Assembly: GCA_020059585.1 (NCBI GenBank)
Contig: JAGVBU010000002.1
Location: forward strand, 27,566-91,565
Length of the DNA: 64,000 nucleotides
DNA from: Minisyncoccota bacterium
GTDB lineage: Bacteria; Patescibacteriota; Minisyncoccia; UBA6257; GWB1-50-10
Reading direction: 5' to 3'
Part shown: piece by piece, positions 2,609-31,562 of the stretch
How positions within the stretch are numbered: position 1 is the stretch's first letter
Layout of the letters: each line of letters starts with the position of its first letter
Notes under the pieces: model-generated
Databases searched by the model: none
Told to the model about the DNA's origin: nothing
Seen by the model: only the letters and a program-made list of their open reading frames with translations
Made by a program: the position numbers and the translations under genes

Positions 2609-3730
2609 ATGTATAAAGTTCGATTCGTAAATCCGCAAAAACAGTTCGCGGACCACAAGGAAGAATATATGGGGGCAGTCGAGCAGGTCTTTTCGCAGGG
2701 AAATCTCATTATGCGACAGGATCTTAAGGATTTTGAGGAGTCGATTGCAAAATTTGTCGGCGTGAAGCACGCAATCGGCGTGAATTCGGGAACGTCAGCA
2801 ATCTATCTCTCTCTTAAAGCGGCGGGAATCGGCCCCGGCGACGAGGTCATCACGGTCGCGCACACATTTATCGCAAGCATTTCATGCGTCTATCTTGTAG
2901 GCGCCACTCCAGTCCTTGTCGACGTTGGAGAAGATTTCAACATCAATCCCGACCTTATTGAGGCGGCGATCACGCCCAAAACAAAGGCAATCGAGGTGGT
3001 GCACCTCAACGGGCGCATTTGCGACATGGACCGCGTGCAGGATATCGCGAAAAAGCACAACCTCATCATTATTGAGGACGCGGCGCAGGCAATGGGAGCA
3101 ACCTACACAACGAGAGACGGCTCCGTGAAGAAGGCGGGGTCATTCGGGCTTACGGGATGTTTTAGTTTGTATCCCTTCAAGGCGCTCGGCGCGTTCGGAA
3201 ATTCGGGAATTATCACGACAGACGACGATGCCATCGCAAAAAAGCTTATGCTCCTCCGTTACAACGGGGAGGACAGGGAAACGCGCTTTTTCTCCTATCA
3301 CAGCCATAATATGCTTATGGACAACGTGCAGGCGGCACTTTTGAACGTGAAAATGAAATACTTTCCTAAATGGATAGAGCGCCGACGGGAGATTGCGAAT
3401 CTCTATTATGAGGGATTGAAAGACGTGCCTCAGGTGAAACTCCCCCACTTCGACGACAATCGATATTACGATATTTATACGAACTACGCGGTGCGCGCGG
3501 AACGTCGTGATGAATTGAAAAAATATTTTGACGACAATGAGCTTGTCGAGACCATCATTTCGTGGCCAATTCCGATGTACAAGCAGACCGCAATGCTCCC
3601 GAACGACTATTTTCTTCTGGAAACGGAAAAAATCTGCACGGAAATCATCTCGCTCCCGATGTATCCCGAACTCACGAACGAGGACGCGCAAAACGTCATT
3701 GACGCGATAAAAACGTTCTATACAAAATAG
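2609..3730 (+). CDS. DegT/DnrJ/EryC1/StrS-family PLP-dependent sugar aminotransferase (PglE-like).
   Basis: Family-typical blocks: GVNSGTSAIYLSLKAAGIGPGDEVITVAHTFIAS, IIEDAAQAMGA, SFGLTGCFSLYPFKALGAFGNSG. The start could instead be 2573 or 2669. Confidence 0.85.
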   Translation: MYKVRFVNPQKQFADHKEEYMGAVEQVFSQGNLIMRQDLKDFEESIAKFVGVKHAIGVNSGTSAIYLSLKAAGIGPGDEVITVAHTFIASISCVYLVGATPVLVDVGEDFNINPDLIEAAITPKTKAIEVVHLNGRICDMDRVQDIAKKHNLIIIEDAAQAMGATYTTRDGSVKKAGSFGLTGCFSLYPFKALGAFGNSGIITTDDDAIAKKLMLLRYNGEDRETRFFSYHSHNMLMDNVQAALLNVKMKYFPKWIERRREIANLYYEGLKDVPQVKLPHFDDNRYYDIYTNYAVRAERRDELKKYFDDNELVETIISWPIPMYKQTAMLPNDYFLLETEKICTEIISLPMYPELTNEDAQNVIDAIKTFYTK

Positions 3731-3794: not shown

Positions 3795-5663
3795 ATGCGA
3801 TATTCTTGGTTTATGCAGACATTCTTGGGTTTTTTGCGGGAGAAAAAAATAATTATATTCGGCATCGCGGATGCCCTTCTTATAGTCATTGGGCTCTTCC
3901 TTTCCTTTCTCGCCCGATTCGACGGTTCTTTTCCTTCAGAATATATCCCATGGTTCCCTTATTACGCGCTCATCCTCGTCGTTTTGAATATCGCATTTCT
4001 CTGGCGCGCGCGTCTCTATGCCTTCACATGGGGATTTGTGGGATTCTCAGAATTCGTAAAGCTCATAAAAGCGACCACCTACGCGCACGCGCTTTTCGCG
4101 ATCTTTGTCTTTATCTACTGGGATAGGCTCGTCTTTCTTTCGGGATTCCCGCGGTCGGTCATCGTCATCAGTTATCTTTTCGATATTATTTTTCTCGGCA
4201 CGCTCCGAATCTCGAAGCGTTTTATTCTTGAATTCATAAGTTCCCGCGCGGCGATGAAACGCGGAGCAGCCACCATCATTGTGGGAGCGGGAACCGAAGG
4301 AGAGCAGATTCTTCGGTTTATGAAGCGCGACGCCTCGTTTAAAATAGTGGGCATTGTCGACAACGACGCGCGGAAGAAGAAATCGCAGATACACGGCGTC
4401 ACCGTACTCGGCGCGATACGAGATATCCCCGCGATTACGGAAAAGTTTTCCGTGACGCGCGCGATTATCGCTATTCCCGCGGGAGACACAGATCTTATTC
4501 GTGACGCGGTGACCCACTCACGCGACGCGGGCATCACCGACATAAAGATCATTCCCACCGCGCATGAACTGCTCACGGGAAAGGTGACGATTGCCGATAT
4601 CCGTGACGTGCGCATTGAGGATCTTTTGGGACGCGCCCCCGCGAAGATAGATACGCATGAAATATCGGACTTTATACGGGGAAAAACGGTGCTCGTGACC
4701 GGCGCCGCGGGCTCTATCGGATCCGAGATCGTGCGGCAGTGCATTGCGTTCGAGCCGAAGAAACTCTATCTTCTTGATTTCAACGAGAGCGGTCTTTTTG
4801 ATCTTGAACAGGAACTCGCGATCGCGGCTCCGCAATCGAAAAAATTCACTCAATCCGTCATCGCGAACATCACGCATAAGGAGAAGATAGACAAGATATT
4901 TCTCGATATGAGACCAAACGTTGTTTTTCACGCGGCGGCATATAAGCATGTGCCTCTTATGGAGGATCATCCGGAGGAAGCGATTCTCACAAACGTCATC
5001 GGGACCATGAATCTTGGGAATGCATCAATCGCGGCGGGAACGGAGAAGTTCGTCATCATTTCTACGGACAAGGCGATACGCCCTCTATCCGTTATGGGAA
5101 AATCAAAACGCGCAGCCGAACTCGTGGGAAAGGCGCTGAATGAGAAAAACGGAACGAAGTTTGTCGCGGTGAGGTTTGGAAACGTCATTGGATCCCGCGG
5201 AAGCGTCATTCCCCTCTTTCAGGAACAGATACGGAAACGATCCCCTATCACCGTCACGCATCCCGATATGACTCGCTATTTTATGACGATTCCCGAAGCG
5301 GCGCTTCTTGTGATGGAGGCTGGCGCGGTGGGAAACGGAGGCGAGGTGTTTATGCTTGATATGGGACAACCCGTGAAAATACTCGATGTCGCGCGAACGC
5401 TTATACGCCTTGCGGGACTCACGCCTGATGTCGATATCCCGATTGTCTTCACCGGCGTTCGTCCGGGAGAGAAGATTGAGGAGATTGTCTTTAGCGAGGA
5501 GGAAAAGCGCGTTGGCACGACGCAGTGGGACAAAATATTCGTCACCAAAAACGAATCAACGTTCGACGCGGAGCGCGTATTAACGCTCACTGAGGCGCTG
5601 CGACACATTATAGAAAAAAACCACGAGGAAACGCGGAAGGATCTTGATGAATTTATTGCGTAG
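3795..5663 (+). CDS. Membrane-anchored polysaccharide biosynthesis protein CapD/PglF/WbpM-type NDP-sugar 4,6-dehydratase.
   Basis: Four N-terminal TM helices. Rossmann motif TGAAGSIGSEI. SDR-type YKHVP. Strong overall similarity to the CapD family. Start is uncertain (3765, 3795 or 3813); the upstream hairpin terminator overlaps 3765. Confidence 0.85.
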   Translation: MRYSWFMQTFLGFLREKKIIIFGIADALLIVIGLFLSFLARFDGSFPSEYIPWFPYYALILVVLNIAFLWRARLYAFTWGFVGFSEFVKLIKATTYAHALFAIFVFIYWDRLVFLSGFPRSVIVISYLFDIIFLGTLRISKRFILEFISSRAAMKRGAATIIVGAGTEGEQILRFMKRDASFKIVGIVDNDARKKKSQIHGVTVLGAIRDIPAITEKFSVTRAIIAIPAGDTDLIRDAVTHSRDAGITDIKIIPTAHELLTGKVTIADIRDVRIEDLLGRAPAKIDTHEISDFIRGKTVLVTGAAGSIGSEIVRQCIAFEPKKLYLLDFNESGLFDLEQELAIAAPQSKKFTQSVIANITHKEKIDKIFLDMRPNVVFHAAAYKHVPLMEDHPEEAILTNVIGTMNLGNASIAAGTEKFVIISTDKAIRPLSVMGKSKRAAELVGKALNEKNGTKFVAVRFGNVIGSRGSVIPLFQEQIRKRSPITVTHPDMTRYFMTIPEAALLVMEAGAVGNGGEVFMLDMGQPVKILDVARTLIRLAGLTPDVDIPIVFTGVRPGEKIEEIVFSEEEKRVGTTQWDKIFVTKNESTFDAERVLTLTEALRHIIEKNHEETRKDLDEFIA

Positions 5664-23656: not shown

Positions 23657-23822
23657 TATCTACCTCCCTAATAAATTTTTTAAATGCGTATTGAATTGCT
23701 GTTATAATAATATAACATTTTATGCATTCTGTCAATATATTGTATGCCCGATGGGGATCGCCAAACGCATTGCTTCAGGGCACCCGAAACAAAAAAACGC
23801 CTGCAGCGTTTTTCGTTTTAAC

Positions 23823-23895
23823 GGGTGCCTAACGGGAATTGAACCCGTGTCATCCGCTCCACAGGCGGATGCTCTACCATTGAGCTATAGGCACC
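23823..23895 (-). tRNA. tRNA-His (anticodon GUG).
   Basis: Hand-folded cloverleaf. Anticodon loop CTGTGGA. Encoded extra 5' G(-1) pairing with discriminator C73, the tRNA-His identity element. T-arm ACGGG-TTCAATT-CCCGT. No encoded CCA. Confidence 0.85.
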
Positions 23896-26434: not shown

Positions 26435-26767
26435 TCAACTCTTCATCGCGTTTATCTTCGCCGCCATAATAAAATCATTTTCCGAGAGTCCTCCAATCGC
26501 ATGGGTTGAGAGCTCTATAATCACGTTTTTGTACGAGACAAGATGAATATCGGGGTGGTGTCCCTCTTCTTCCGCAATTTTCCCCACGGCGTTTACAAAC
26601 GAGAGTGCCGCGGCAAAATCAGAATTTTCAAATGTATGTATTATCTTCTTTCCGTCATCACTCATCTCCCACCCAAGCACTCCCGCGAGATATTTCTGCG
26701 ATTCCTCTTTCGTCATGGGCTTTGCTCCCCCCTCACATGGCACGCATTTTTTATTTAATAGATCCAT
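26435..26767 (-). CDS. Pterin-4a-carbinolamine dehydratase (PCD/DCoH).
   Basis: Start at MDLLNKK. Active-site block EEGHHPDI. About 110 aa. Confidence 0.85.
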   Translation of the reverse strand: MDLLNKKCVPCEGGAKPMTKEESQKYLAGVLGWEMSDDGKKIIHTFENSDFAAALSFVNAVGKIAEEEGHHPDIHLVSYKNVIIELSTHAIGGLSENDFIMAAKINAMKS

Positions 26768-26856
26768 GGGGTAAGTATACGGTAGTAAGTAGTAAGTAGT
26801 AAGGGTTCGATTCACCCTCGTCCCGATTTTCATCGGGACTCCTCTGCGGAAATAAG

Positions 26857-26888
26857 AATCCCGCCAGTCTATAGACTGGCGGGATGAT
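26857..26888 (-). terminator. Hairpin terminator copy downstream of a degenerate tRNA-Phe 3' fragment. It is the same 24-nt stem-loop as the tRNA-Arg terminator at 28587-28610.
   Basis: cccgccagtctatagactggcggg is a perfect palindrome, followed on the minus strand by a U-rich tract. Confidence 0.6.
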
Positions 26889-27066
26889 GGTGCCGCGGGG
26901 GTGAGATCGCCCTCGACTCAAAAGAGTGCCGTCGCACTCTTTTGGTCTGGGCACCGGCTCGCGGTGCATTCTGCTGAATGCACATCGCTCCGCCGTTCGA
27001 TTCACCACGCAACGCACGCAGGTGCGTTGCTCCCGCATAAAAACCCCTGAAGGGGTTTTTATTTTG
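26889..27066 (-). repeat. Palindrome-rich element of about 175 bp. It begins with a 15-nt copy of the tRNA-Phe 3' end and is related to the repeats downstream of tRNA-Arg.
   Basis: gtgccgcgggggtga is present at 26890 and at 27066. Shares the ctgggcaccgSctcgcgKtgcat motif and the gcattctgctgaatgca palindrome with the 28069-28618 units. Confidence 0.65.
27039..27065 (-). terminator. Rho-independent terminator immediately downstream of tRNA-Phe.
   Basis: aaaaacccctgaaggggtttttatttt. Confidence 0.7.
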
Positions 27067-27138
27067 TGCCGCGGGGGTGAATCGAACACCCGACACGACG
27101 CTCTTCAGGCGACTGCTCTACCACTGAGCTACCGCGGC
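27067..27138 (-). tRNA. tRNA-Phe (anticodon GAA).
   Basis: Hand-folded cloverleaf. Acceptor GCCGCGG/CCGCGGC. D-arm GCTC-AGTGGTA-GAGC. Anticodon loop CTGAAGA, with one U·U mismatch in the anticodon stem. T-arm GGGTG-TTCGATT-CACCC. Discriminator A. No encoded CCA. Confidence 0.8.
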
Positions 27139-27291
27139 GAATGGTGAGGAAAAGAATATATGTAATATATTGTTTTCGAACCGTGATGCCGAGGAATATT
27201 GCGTAAAACGCGCACCCCGCGACATCTCTGTCATAACGAAGAATATCACACGAAAAATACTTTTTCAATTTGGGTCGACACATTTATTTGC

Positions 27292-28068: not shown

Positions 28069-28618
28069 GGCCCTTGCGCGCAAAACAATTTTTTGCCCTC
28101 GCCTCTCAGTCGCGCCGACGCGCTCTTTCGGGCTGGGCACCGCCTCGCGTGCATGTCTTCTGACACGCACTGGCTCCGGCGTACAAAATAGAACGCGAGA
28201 CAAATAATTGTCTCGCTTATGCGGCTTACGCCGCATTCTATTTTGTACCCCCGGCAGGAAAAAGGAATCGCCTACAAGTTCCTCCTCGTCGTCACTCGTC
28301 GGACTCGCAGGCCGCCGCTCGCCATGCATTCTGCTGAATGCATATGGCTGCGCGCTTCGATTCCTGCCCGCAAAACAATTGTTTTGCTTGGGGATACGAT
28401 AAAACACACAAAATTGTGTGTTTTATTTTCGTACCCCCGGCAGGAATCGGCTCCGACTAAAATTTTCACCGTCGTGAAAATTTTGTCTAGCCGCCGCCTC
28501 GCTCCCACGCCTACTGGCGTGGGTCCCGCTCCGGCGTTCGATTCCGCACGCAAGCAAATACTTTTGCTTGCTCGGGGGAAACAAATCCCGCCAGTCTATA
28601 GACTGGCGGGATGATTTG
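28069..28618. repeat. Tandem array of three roughly 186-bp palindrome-rich units. The second and third units each begin (in tRNA sense) with a 15-19 nt copy of the tRNA-Arg 3' end.
   Basis: gtacccccggcagga occurs at 28245, 28431 and 28618, with a period of 186-187 bp. Each unit holds 3-4 perfect hairpins. Confidence 0.75.
28578..28612 (-). terminator. Rho-independent terminator of tRNA-Arg.
   Basis: Minus strand, directly after the tRNA 3' end: cccgccagtc-tata-gactggcggg followed by atttgttt. Confidence 0.7.
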
Positions 28619-28690
28619 TACCCCCGGCAGGAATCGAACCCGCATCAAGGCCTTAGAAGAGCCCTGCACTATCCATTGTGCTACGGGGGC
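28619..28690 (-). tRNA. tRNA-Arg (anticodon UCU).
   Basis: Hand-folded cloverleaf. Acceptor GCCCCCG/CGGGGGU (G1·U72). D-arm GCAC-AATGGATA-GTGC. Anticodon stem GGGCT/GGCCT (two G·U pairs) with loop CTTCTAA. T-arm GCGGG-TTCGATT-CCTGC. Confidence 0.75.
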
Positions 28691-31110: not shown

Positions 31111-31184
31111 GCGGGCGTAGCTCAGCTGGTTAGAGCGATTGCCTGTCACGCAATAGGTCGCCGGTTCGAGTCCGGTCGCCCGCG
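31111..31184 (+). tRNA. tRNA-Asp (anticodon GUC).
   Basis: Acceptor GCGGGCG/CGCCCGC. D-arm GCTC-AGCTGGTTA-GAGC. Anticodon stem ATTGC/GCAAT with loop CTGTCAC. T-arm GCCGG-TTCGAGT-CCGGT. Discriminator G. Confidence 0.85.
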
Positions 31185-31188
31185 CAAG

Positions 31189-31219
31189 AAAAACATCCAT
31201 AATACGGATGTTTTTTGTT
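31189..31219 (+). terminator. Rho-independent terminator of tRNA-Asp.
   Basis: aaaaacatccataatacggatgttttttgtt. Confidence 0.7.
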
Positions 31220-31312
31220 ACCGGACTTGAACGGGAAAGGGCGGTGGGAAAACGGGAGTTTTCCCAAGGCGGATAACATAAACCGATGGGTTTGTGAGAG
31301 TTTTGAAAAAAC

Positions 31313-31372
31313 GACGTTCGATTCCGTCGCCCGCGCAAAAAAAAACATCCATTATGTGGATGTTTTTTGTTA
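31313..31372 (+). repeat. Direct duplicate of the last 23 nt of tRNA-Asp (T-loop plus acceptor 3' strand), followed by a second copy of its terminator.
   Basis: cgttcgattccgtcgcccgcgca, then aaaaacatccattatgtggatgttttttgttacc. Compare 31162-31222. Confidence 0.7.
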
Positions 31373-31562
31373 CCGTATTTGAACGAGGAGTGAATTCTTG
31401 TTTGAAAAAAGCAGAAAATCGAGTAAAGTCATAGATATGAATCCCGTTAGAAACCGCGATCGCGGGGACATATAAGCACTCTATTAAACGAACGTATATG
31501 TCAGTCGAAACAAAAACAAATCACATAATGGATCGTTTGATTGCGGTCTGTTTCTAAATGGG

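Follow-up and report, generated by a model that had tools for sequence, protein, structure and literature searches.

An insert behind a tRNA-Phe gene and its family of small, structured, non-coding elements at tRNA 3′ ends in Patescibacteria

In a 64,000-nucleotide stretch of contig JAGVBU010000002.1 from a Minisyncoccota bacterium (the whole stretch is called the window here), an intact tRNA-Phe(GAA) gene (27066-27138, minus strand; detected by ARAGORN and by the Rfam tRNA model at 65 bits) is followed by a second copy of its own 3′ end, and the question raised by this locus is what has come to lie between the two. Because this gene and the neighbouring tRNA-Arg gene are both on the minus strand, downstream means lower coordinates. 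The 15-mer GTGCCGCGGGGGTGA, which is the reverse complement of the tRNA-Phe 3′ end, is found at 27066-27080, where it forms the proximal direct-repeat copy, and again at 26890-26904, with 176 bp between the two. A sequence-only reading of the window had assigned the intervening DNA to a repeat family that also occurs behind tRNA-Arg and had proposed that it displaced the original tRNA end; its sequence details (tRNA positions, repeats, hairpin, and homology) were all confirmed. We lean towards the view that the insert is a copy of a non-autonomous, protein-less insertion element family in Patescibacteria, which is specific for the 3′ ends of tRNA genes. The tRNA stays intact, the second 3′-end copy and the sequence following it are pushed ~175 bp downstream, and units build up as tandem arrays and decay, with gains or losses from strain to strain.

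The insert itself, designated unit PheA (26890-27043, minus strand), is a full-length family member with a covariance model score of 136 bits (E 3e-35). Its spacer next to the tRNA (27037-27065, minus strand), identified from the inverted-repeat listing and the sequence, is a bidirectional terminator-like hairpin, ATAAAAACCCCT/AGGGGTTTTTAT. In plus-strand coordinates, the parts of the unit are the acceptor-complement (IR-L1, 27030-27036), the hairpin hp3 (27009-27030), the complement of the T-loop and T-stem, GTTCGATTCACC (IR-L2, 26995-27006), and the hairpins hp2 (26964-26983) and hp1 (26919-26944). The unit is closed by the distal direct repeat (26890-26908, minus strand), in which the tRNA-Phe 3′ end is copied exactly over 15 nt (26890-26904) and degenerates beyond, just as had been described. 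The minimum-free-energy fold of PheA is the consensus structure of the family (−84.5 kcal/mol, z −7.8). A palindrome singled out beforehand, gcattctgctgaatgc, proved to be the family hairpin hp2, and the degenerate S in the shared motif ccgSctcgc belongs to a base pair that covaries (CG 64, GC 24).

Beyond the distal repeat stands the hairpin T1 (26857-26888, minus strand; AATCCCGCCAGTCTATAGACTGGCGGGATGAT), which had been noticed at both the tRNA-Phe and the tRNA-Arg sites; the two copies are identical (the other is at 28584-28615) and measure 32 nt. These are the only two identical copies in the window, where none is expected by chance, and T1 is a predicted terminator by consensus match. Distal to T1 lies PheB (26803-26856, minus strand), a truncated older unit delimited from the sequence and the repeat listings, which has no core but retains an IR-L1-like tcctctgcgg (26840-26849), an hp3-like hairpin (26820-26839), and GTTCGATTCACC (26805-26816). 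T1 also stands at the head of this older unit. PheB, the inverted copy of the tRNA 3′ segment carried by each unit, and a sister element behind tRNA-Asp described below go beyond what the sequence-only reading had recorded.

Three tandem units homologous to 26890-27065 are located between a ZIP-transporter gene and the intact tRNA-Arg(TCT) gene (28618-28690, minus strand; ARAGORN and Rfam). The unit nearest the tRNA, Arg3 (28431-28584, minus strand; 121 bits), uses a T1 hairpin as its spacer (28584-28615, minus strand) and carries a direct repeat (28431-28449) equal to the tRNA-Arg 3′ end at 19 of 19 positions. Arg2 together with its spacer hairpin (28399-28426) occupies 28245-28430 (minus strand; 89.6 bits), and its direct repeat (28245-28260) is interrupted by a 5-nt insertion. 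Arg1 (28069-28244, minus strand; 84.9 bits) is a degenerate variant devoid of the T-loop complement and the distal direct repeat, and terminates in an hp3-like hairpin (28076-28096) abutting the stop of the ZIP gene. The claim that the insert and the units at 28069-28617 belong to one repeat family was upheld by blastn alignments of PheA with Arg1 (78% over 90 nt, E 2e-11) and with Arg2 (85% over 47 nt, E 8e-10). When the covariance model was run on the whole 64 kb, it matched the four full units at 136, 121, 90, and 85 bits, with no further match.

The extent of the family was examined by scanning a degenerate core pattern over a species-representative genome collection, from which 120 loci were fetched. 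Profile and covariance-model searches of these loci yielded 107 family members, nearly all from metagenome-assembled genomes (MAGs) of Patescibacteria (Paceibacteria, Kaiser-, Taylor-, Jorgensen-, Uhr-, Portnoy-, and Saccharibacteria). The copies are ~150-190 bp long, multi-copy, and non-coding; no plausible coding capacity was seen in the units, and mechanical open reading frames (ORFs) overlapping them were left aside. A look for the same element beside other tRNAs had been proposed, and the more than 100 members indeed stand mostly behind tRNAs. Specifically, 77 of 111 covariance-model hits are no more than 70 nt downstream of a co-oriented tRNA, and the remaining hits are mostly second array units or are cut by locus ends. 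For 66 of 68 nhmmer hits the nearest tRNA is adjacent, and in all 66 the element is 3′ of the tRNA and in the same orientation. The element-bearing tRNAs cover at least 17 amino-acid specificities. Within the family-bearing loci, 84 tRNAs have an element and 92 do not, so that about half carry one, in a sample that is biased because the loci were picked for having the element. As is typical of selfish repeats, tandem arrays, truncated copies, and orphan copies all occur, and copies at different tRNAs of one genome are 79-91% alike. One orphan copy (L033:5023-5173) is 93% identical to a tRNA-Glu-linked copy of the same MAG (L010:1256-1406); it has an intact tRNA-Glu-type direct repeat and stands behind a sequence in which ARAGORN recognises no tRNA; it arose either by segmental duplication, with decay of the tRNA, or by insertion at an ectopic site.

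Read in tRNA sense, the units show a common order of tRNA, spacer, inverted copy split by hp3, two-hairpin core, and direct copy. The spacer is 0-55 nt long and in many copies forms a bidirectional terminator-like hairpin; as judged by reading, about one spacer in three is a strong hairpin of the terminator type, and the two T1 copies of the window were also scored. In the inverted copy, the acceptor part is the reverse complement of the local acceptor 3′ strand plus the discriminator base, and of CCA where it is encoded, whereas the T-part is the reverse complement of the T-stem 3′ strand and the T-loop, (N5)GGAATCGAAC; hp3 is flanked by AGC and GCGU. In the core, hp2 (loop CAGCAG or CAGUAG) is set between GCC-GGAGC and GCGAG-GGC, and hp1 (loop GCGACGGCGA) between GCCCAG-CCGAG and GAGAGG-CGAGGGC, both hairpins being closed by conserved purine-rich internal loops. 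At the distal end stands a direct copy that begins at (C)GATTC in the T-loop of the tRNA and continues to the tRNA 3′ end, with CCA where the gene encodes it.

These tRNA-derived repeats match the tRNA beside which they stand. The direct repeat is at least 12 nt long and exact in 32 of 58 copies, and it typically spans 18-21 nt from CGATTC to the tRNA end. Compared with its own tRNA, it agrees at 12 or more of 13 positions in 38 of 69 copies, a level seen in none of the cross-pairings. A perfect inverted T-stem part is seen in 19 of 69 copies versus 1% of cross-pairings, and the inverted acceptor part reaches at least 7 of 8 positions in 19 of 69 copies versus 0.8% of cross-pairings, with a mean match of 5.5 of 8. 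Even the unusual local T-loops TTCAATT, TTCGAAT, and TTCAACT are mirrored by the inverted copy. The duplication ends variably, from inside the tRNA up to ~38 nt past it (6-38 nt beyond the tRNA end in some loci), for a total length of 13 to ~58 nt. A fixed left boundary with a variable right one is expected of an att-type identity block and not of a fixed-length target duplication, and the upstream tRNA is complete in every adjacent case. The direct repeats of the family, running from the T-loop to the 3′ end, have the geometry of integration into a tRNA gene that had been proposed for tRNA-Phe.

The folding of the element is supported by covariation. RNAalifold applied to 31 copies predicted 35 pairs, 33 of them with compensatory changes. 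In 95 model-aligned copies, 90.5% of the cells are paired and double changes occur in 34 of 35 pairs, figures that are biased towards the structure, this alignment having been fitted to the model. The covariation score of 0.657 compares with 0.173 for column shuffles, none of 500 of which reached the observed value, and with 0.07-0.09 for slid partners. The two strands differ in this respect: the tRNA-sense strand is purine-rich and folds better in 82 of 87 copies (−61.1 vs −53.2 kcal/mol), and G-T pairs outnumber A-C pairs (114 vs 41). This strand-asymmetric folding indicates that it is the tRNA-sense strand that folds, be it RNA or single-stranded DNA. Interpretations of hp2 and hp3 as K-turns or kissing loops, which were examined by eye, were dropped for want of consistent covariation.

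Evidence for gain and loss was obtained from three other public contigs (L226, L227, and L228), which encode a ZIP protein identical to the one located between both arrays; exact-protein look-ups with two other flanking genes returned nothing. The L227 contig is ~97% identical to the window at the nucleotide level in the flanking DNA, and in it CATC, the 32-nt hairpin, and PheB come right after the tRNA-Phe gene. What is missing is exactly the 176-bp PheA unit, with break-points inside the 15-nt direct repeat. This empty site directly supports the suggestion that the tRNA-Phe 3′ end and its hairpin were displaced by ~175 bp. The number of cores at tRNA-Arg is three in the window, one in L226, and zero in L227, where hp3, the acceptor complement, and the hairpin are present alone, in an arrangement that is partly covered as the contig ends inside the hairpin. 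L228 equals the window over its covered stretch, from tRNA-Phe through Arg1. In a related species (L071), whose genes are 74-82% identical to those of the window, there is a single hybrid Arg unit, and the unit proximal to tRNA-Phe is 93% identical overall, and 99% in the core columns, to Arg2 of the window. These differences between strains and species, combined with the similarity across tRNAs, indicate that units move or exchange between tRNA loci and that arrays expand and contract quickly.

The 32-nt hairpin has a distribution of its own. The related MAG SKS1.bin17 has near-identical versions (ATCCCGCC..GGCGGGAT) at L036:2890-2925, L036:5150-5184, and L071:4905-4940; the sites lie behind tRNA-Arg and tRNA-Gly, with L036:5150-5184 as an additional one. 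The stem-tip changes between hairpin versions are compensatory. Judging from these copies, the hairpin would behave like a small REP-like repeat that is uniform within a lineage.

If the family consists of insertion elements, its copies could move through recombination, site-specific or guided by homology, within the stretch between the T-loop and the tRNA 3′ end, and a trans-acting enzyme would catalyse this. The substrate would probably be the tRNA-sense strand as a folded single-stranded intermediate; pairing of its inverted copy with its direct copy of the tRNA end would rebuild a duplex copy of the target, by analogy with attC and CTX attP. Copies whose spacer has no terminator are probably transcribed together with the tRNA, as its trailer. 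The inverted copy matching each new tRNA might arise by target copying, by gene conversion within the palindrome, or through lineages confined to a single tRNA.

Several points weigh against this explanation. No recombinase, transposase, or autonomous parent element was found in the data, beyond which a trans-acting integrase elsewhere in the genome would lie, and no excised or circular form was observed. An element carrying the 3′ end of one tRNA should not easily colonise another tRNA, and yet related cores, accompanied in each case by inverted and direct copies that match, occur at many tRNAs; a further step would be needed, for example target copying or gene conversion. The polymorphism of PheA could be either an insertion in one lineage or a precise repeat-mediated deletion in the other, and either the proximal or the distal 3′ end could be the element-borne one. 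Two of the array variants break in hp3 hairpins and not in the direct repeat. Finally, the very strong conservation of the core across distant classes of the candidate phyla radiation (CPR) would also fit an RNA that benefits the host.

Such an RNA, the main rival explanation, can be pictured as a functional tRNA trailer made in one transcript with the tRNA. Its inverted copy would pair with its direct copy to form a tRNA-like acceptor/T minihelix, into which hp3 and the two-hairpin domain are inserted. The enzymes of tRNA processing (RNase P, RNase Z, and the CCA-adding enzyme) would act on it or bind it, and its copies would have spread by duplication; alternatively, it could work as a switch between pairing with the tRNA 3′ quarter and pairing with its own 3′ copy. 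In its favour, the orientation is always tRNA-sense, the better-folding strand is the purine-rich one with G-T far above A-C, and conservation across CPR is strong in the core sequence as well as in the internal loops. Against it, the acceptor-like helix is eroded to the mean of 5.5 of 8 given above (at least 7 of 8 in 19 of 69 copies). Most copies have a spacer without a terminator, and a terminator-like hairpin follows the direct repeat in several of those inspected; on the other hand, strong terminator-like hairpins make up about one-third of the spacers. Complementarity between the inverted copy and the upstream tRNA covers the entire 3′ quarter of the latter, and CCA as well where it is encoded. 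However, many copies are truncated, orphan, or tandem, their presence or absence differs between near-identical strains, and no Rfam family corresponds to them. We therefore consider a trailer RNA a tentative possibility, although a rather unlikely one. A related idea, to which we give slightly less credence, treats the element first and foremost as an RNA: a structured, tRNA-linked RNA found throughout CPR, with a 5′ part antisense to, and a 3′ end repeating, the 3′ quarter of its own tRNA. It would act on tRNA maturation or quality control in these cells, which are poor in enzymes, or would itself guide or catalyse strand exchange at the T-loop. If RNA-driven strand exchange were true, the element would be an RNA-programmed mobile element without a protein gene. 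The insertion-element and functional-RNA explanations are not mutually exclusive.

Three further explanations appear much less probable. A guide-RNA-like module, comparable to the omega-RNAs of TnpB, the guides of Cas12, or the bridge RNAs of IS110, could steer a trans-encoded nuclease or recombinase to tRNA genes; the ~130-nt scaffold followed by an 18-21-nt target-identical 3′ segment from a fixed T-loop position has the appropriate form, and the complement of both sides of the T-loop junction (GGAATC|GAAC) is inside the unit. This is nevertheless improbable, because the presumed guide is paired to the inverted copy, the internal loops are invariant and not programmable, no TnpB, IscB, Cas12, or IS110 gene was seen in the inspected loci, and there was no match to the omega-RNA, tracrRNA, or bridge-type families of Rfam. 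In an intron-like or split-tRNA arrangement, the tRNA body would be joined to the distal 3′ copy and the core would be a small T-loop intron, self-splicing or associated with a homing endonuclease. The complementarity of GGAATCGAAC to both sides of the T-loop junction resembles an internal guide sequence, and L016 has an ORF with a LAGLIDADG fold between tRNA-Glu and the element core. This ORF, the sole nested one, contains a helix-turn-helix domain in addition to the LAGLIDADG fold, is not an integrase, and is a paralogue of an ORF in the window. Among 80 metagenomic relatives of the window ORF, most of those with a tRNA within a few hundred nt adjoin tRNA-Met(CAT), and the density of elements in their loci is about the same as in the window, with no clear excess; these data show no specific link to the element, and a homing endonuclease as the partner of the element is possible but not supported by them. 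Moreover, the upstream tRNAs are complete in all adjacent cases, many distal copies are degenerate, and the group I intron model gave no match even at E up to 10. When the upstream sequence of orphan copies was joined to the distal copy, no tRNA resulted. The intron or split-tRNA arrangement is largely refuted and we hold it to be very improbable. Scars of ordinary integrase-type prophage or island integration and loss, or chance repeats around terminators, are given an equally low probability. T-loop-to-3′-end direct repeats are indeed typical of integrase att sites, but the same covarying core of ~150 nt is present in more than 100 loci at 17 kinds of tRNA, and this family-wide conservation refutes scars and chance alike; the hairpin and the repeats are far beyond chance. 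In IMG/VR viral contigs, 19 matches to a core 17-mer were found, of which none fit the covariance model and none was near a tRNA.

How the element relates to known systems can be seen by comparison. A Rfam 15 search with 11 kb and with a single unit, on both strands and with E up to 10, returned terminator-like noise only and nothing relevant; no description of the element was met in the literature searched in full text, in which a paper on group I introns in tRNAs of Patescibacteria concerns position 35/36 and is unrelated to the element. In repeat geometry, the family resembles integrase-type elements such as prophages, genomic islands, and cis-mobilizable elements (CIMEs). Integrase att sites typically show direct repeats that start in the T-loop and reach the 3′ end of the tRNA, and Williams is said to have distinguished, in 2002, a T-loop sublocation class of integrase-type integration at tRNA genes. 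As in those elements, the repeat of the family restores the segment from the T-loop to the 3′ end so that the tRNA gene stays intact, the original 3′ end and its flank are displaced, tandem accretion occurs, and presence and absence are bounded by the repeat. In contrast to them, the units measure 150-190 bp and not kilobases, have no integrase and no gene, contain a conserved structured core and an extra inverted copy of the att segment, and are found as one family at 17 or more different tRNA species.

Miniature inverted-repeat transposable elements (MITEs) and other small repeats, including Correia, RUP, BOX, REP/BIME, and palindrome-associated elements derived from IS200/IS605, are likewise small, non-coding, multi-copy, strongly folded, non-autonomous, and strain-polymorphic. 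However, the present family has no element-specific terminal inverted repeats, its inverted repeat being tRNA-derived and different for each tRNA; its duplication has a start fixed at (C)GATTC and a variable end (13 to ~58 nt); and its target and orientation are strict, with no parent insertion sequence found. The IS200/IS605-derived elements make no target duplication, whereas a duplication is present here. No TnpA or TnpB was seen in the loci examined, a statement made without a systematic search. The attC cassettes and the attP(+) of the CTX phage, used with XerCD, share with the family a structure conserved on one strand, arrays at a single locus, and two inverted target-like copies that can fold into a duplex mimic of the chromosomal site. 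They differ in that the target here is a tRNA gene instead of attI or dif, the core is conserved in sequence too, no recombinase is assigned, and a single-stranded intermediate is purely inferred. A possible coaxial helix of acceptor and T-stem, ending in the local tRNA 3′ strand, discriminator base, and CCA, recalls tRNA-like RNAs (the tmRNA domain, viral tRNA-like structures, YrlA, and mascRNA). Unlike these, the element has no mimic of the T-loop/D-loop, its helix is often eroded, and its copies are many and polymorphic; ARAGORN and the tRNA and tmRNA models of Rfam do not detect it. Taken together, the element belongs neither to the integrase islands nor to the MITEs or the attC/attP sites: it has neither an integrase nor a known recombinase, it is without terminal repeats specific to the element, and its duplication varies in length.

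Behind the tRNA-Asp gene of the window (31111-31185), at 31186-31375 on the plus strand, lies a sister element that shares the layout but has a different, shorter core. It comprises a terminator hairpin, the inverted T-arm copy ACCGGACTTGAACGG (31220-31235), the core, and a direct repeat of ~58 nt (31318-31375), which equals the tRNA-Asp 3′ end plus its terminator; there was no match to the family covariance model R1. The sequence TATTTGAACGAGGAGTG after this element looks like the start of a further truncated unit. Including tRNA-Asp of the window, eight of the 92 element-free tRNAs show the same T-loop-to-end duplication around a different core, and these represent sister families. Inserts of 60-200 nt with the same direct repeat and unrelated cores were also observed in L005 (tRNA-Arg 3614-3686), L042 (tRNA-Thr 19-92), L050, L051, and L091 (tRNA-Pro 4194-4265). 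The layouts suggest that insertion at CPR tRNA genes may follow one general mechanism with several families of cargo.

The ultra-small Patescibacteria (CPR) account for a large part of bacterial diversity, and their minimal genomes are expected to retain little non-coding DNA. A mobile family would be the smallest known element to rebuild a tRNA 3′ end in the manner of integrase elements, and would point to an unrecognised recombination system with specificity for tRNA T-arms. An RNA family would amount to a major class of so far unannotated RNAs tied to tRNA biogenesis. Either way, the family explains assembly breaks and strain heterogeneity at CPR tRNA loci; its polymorphism makes it a natural marker, and its mode of insertion is a candidate safe-harbour mechanism for organisms in which genetic manipulation is very hard.

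Some minor observations concern the surroundings of tRNA ends and of the units. The motif AACGAAGTGA (GAACGNNGNGA) recurs right after tRNA ends or direct repeats, for example in L079, L004, L019, L083, and L067; it looks like GAATCGAACGCCGGAGC in degenerate form, and lost units may have left it behind as a remnant or footprint. The tRNA-His gene of the window (23823-23894, minus strand) has no element, and a terminator-like palindrome downstream of it (23779-23829) extends into the tRNA; this hairpin is closed by GGGTGCC, which is complementary to the tRNA 3′ end. A 3′-end complement of this kind is found at 6.5% of the element-free tRNAs, compared to a background of 1%. At the tRNA-Phe locus, GTAGTAA occurs three times in tandem (26781-26803) exactly at the truncated end of PheB, and the triplet is ~15-35 nt upstream of the likely start codon (26765-26767) of a pterin-4a-like gene on the minus strand.

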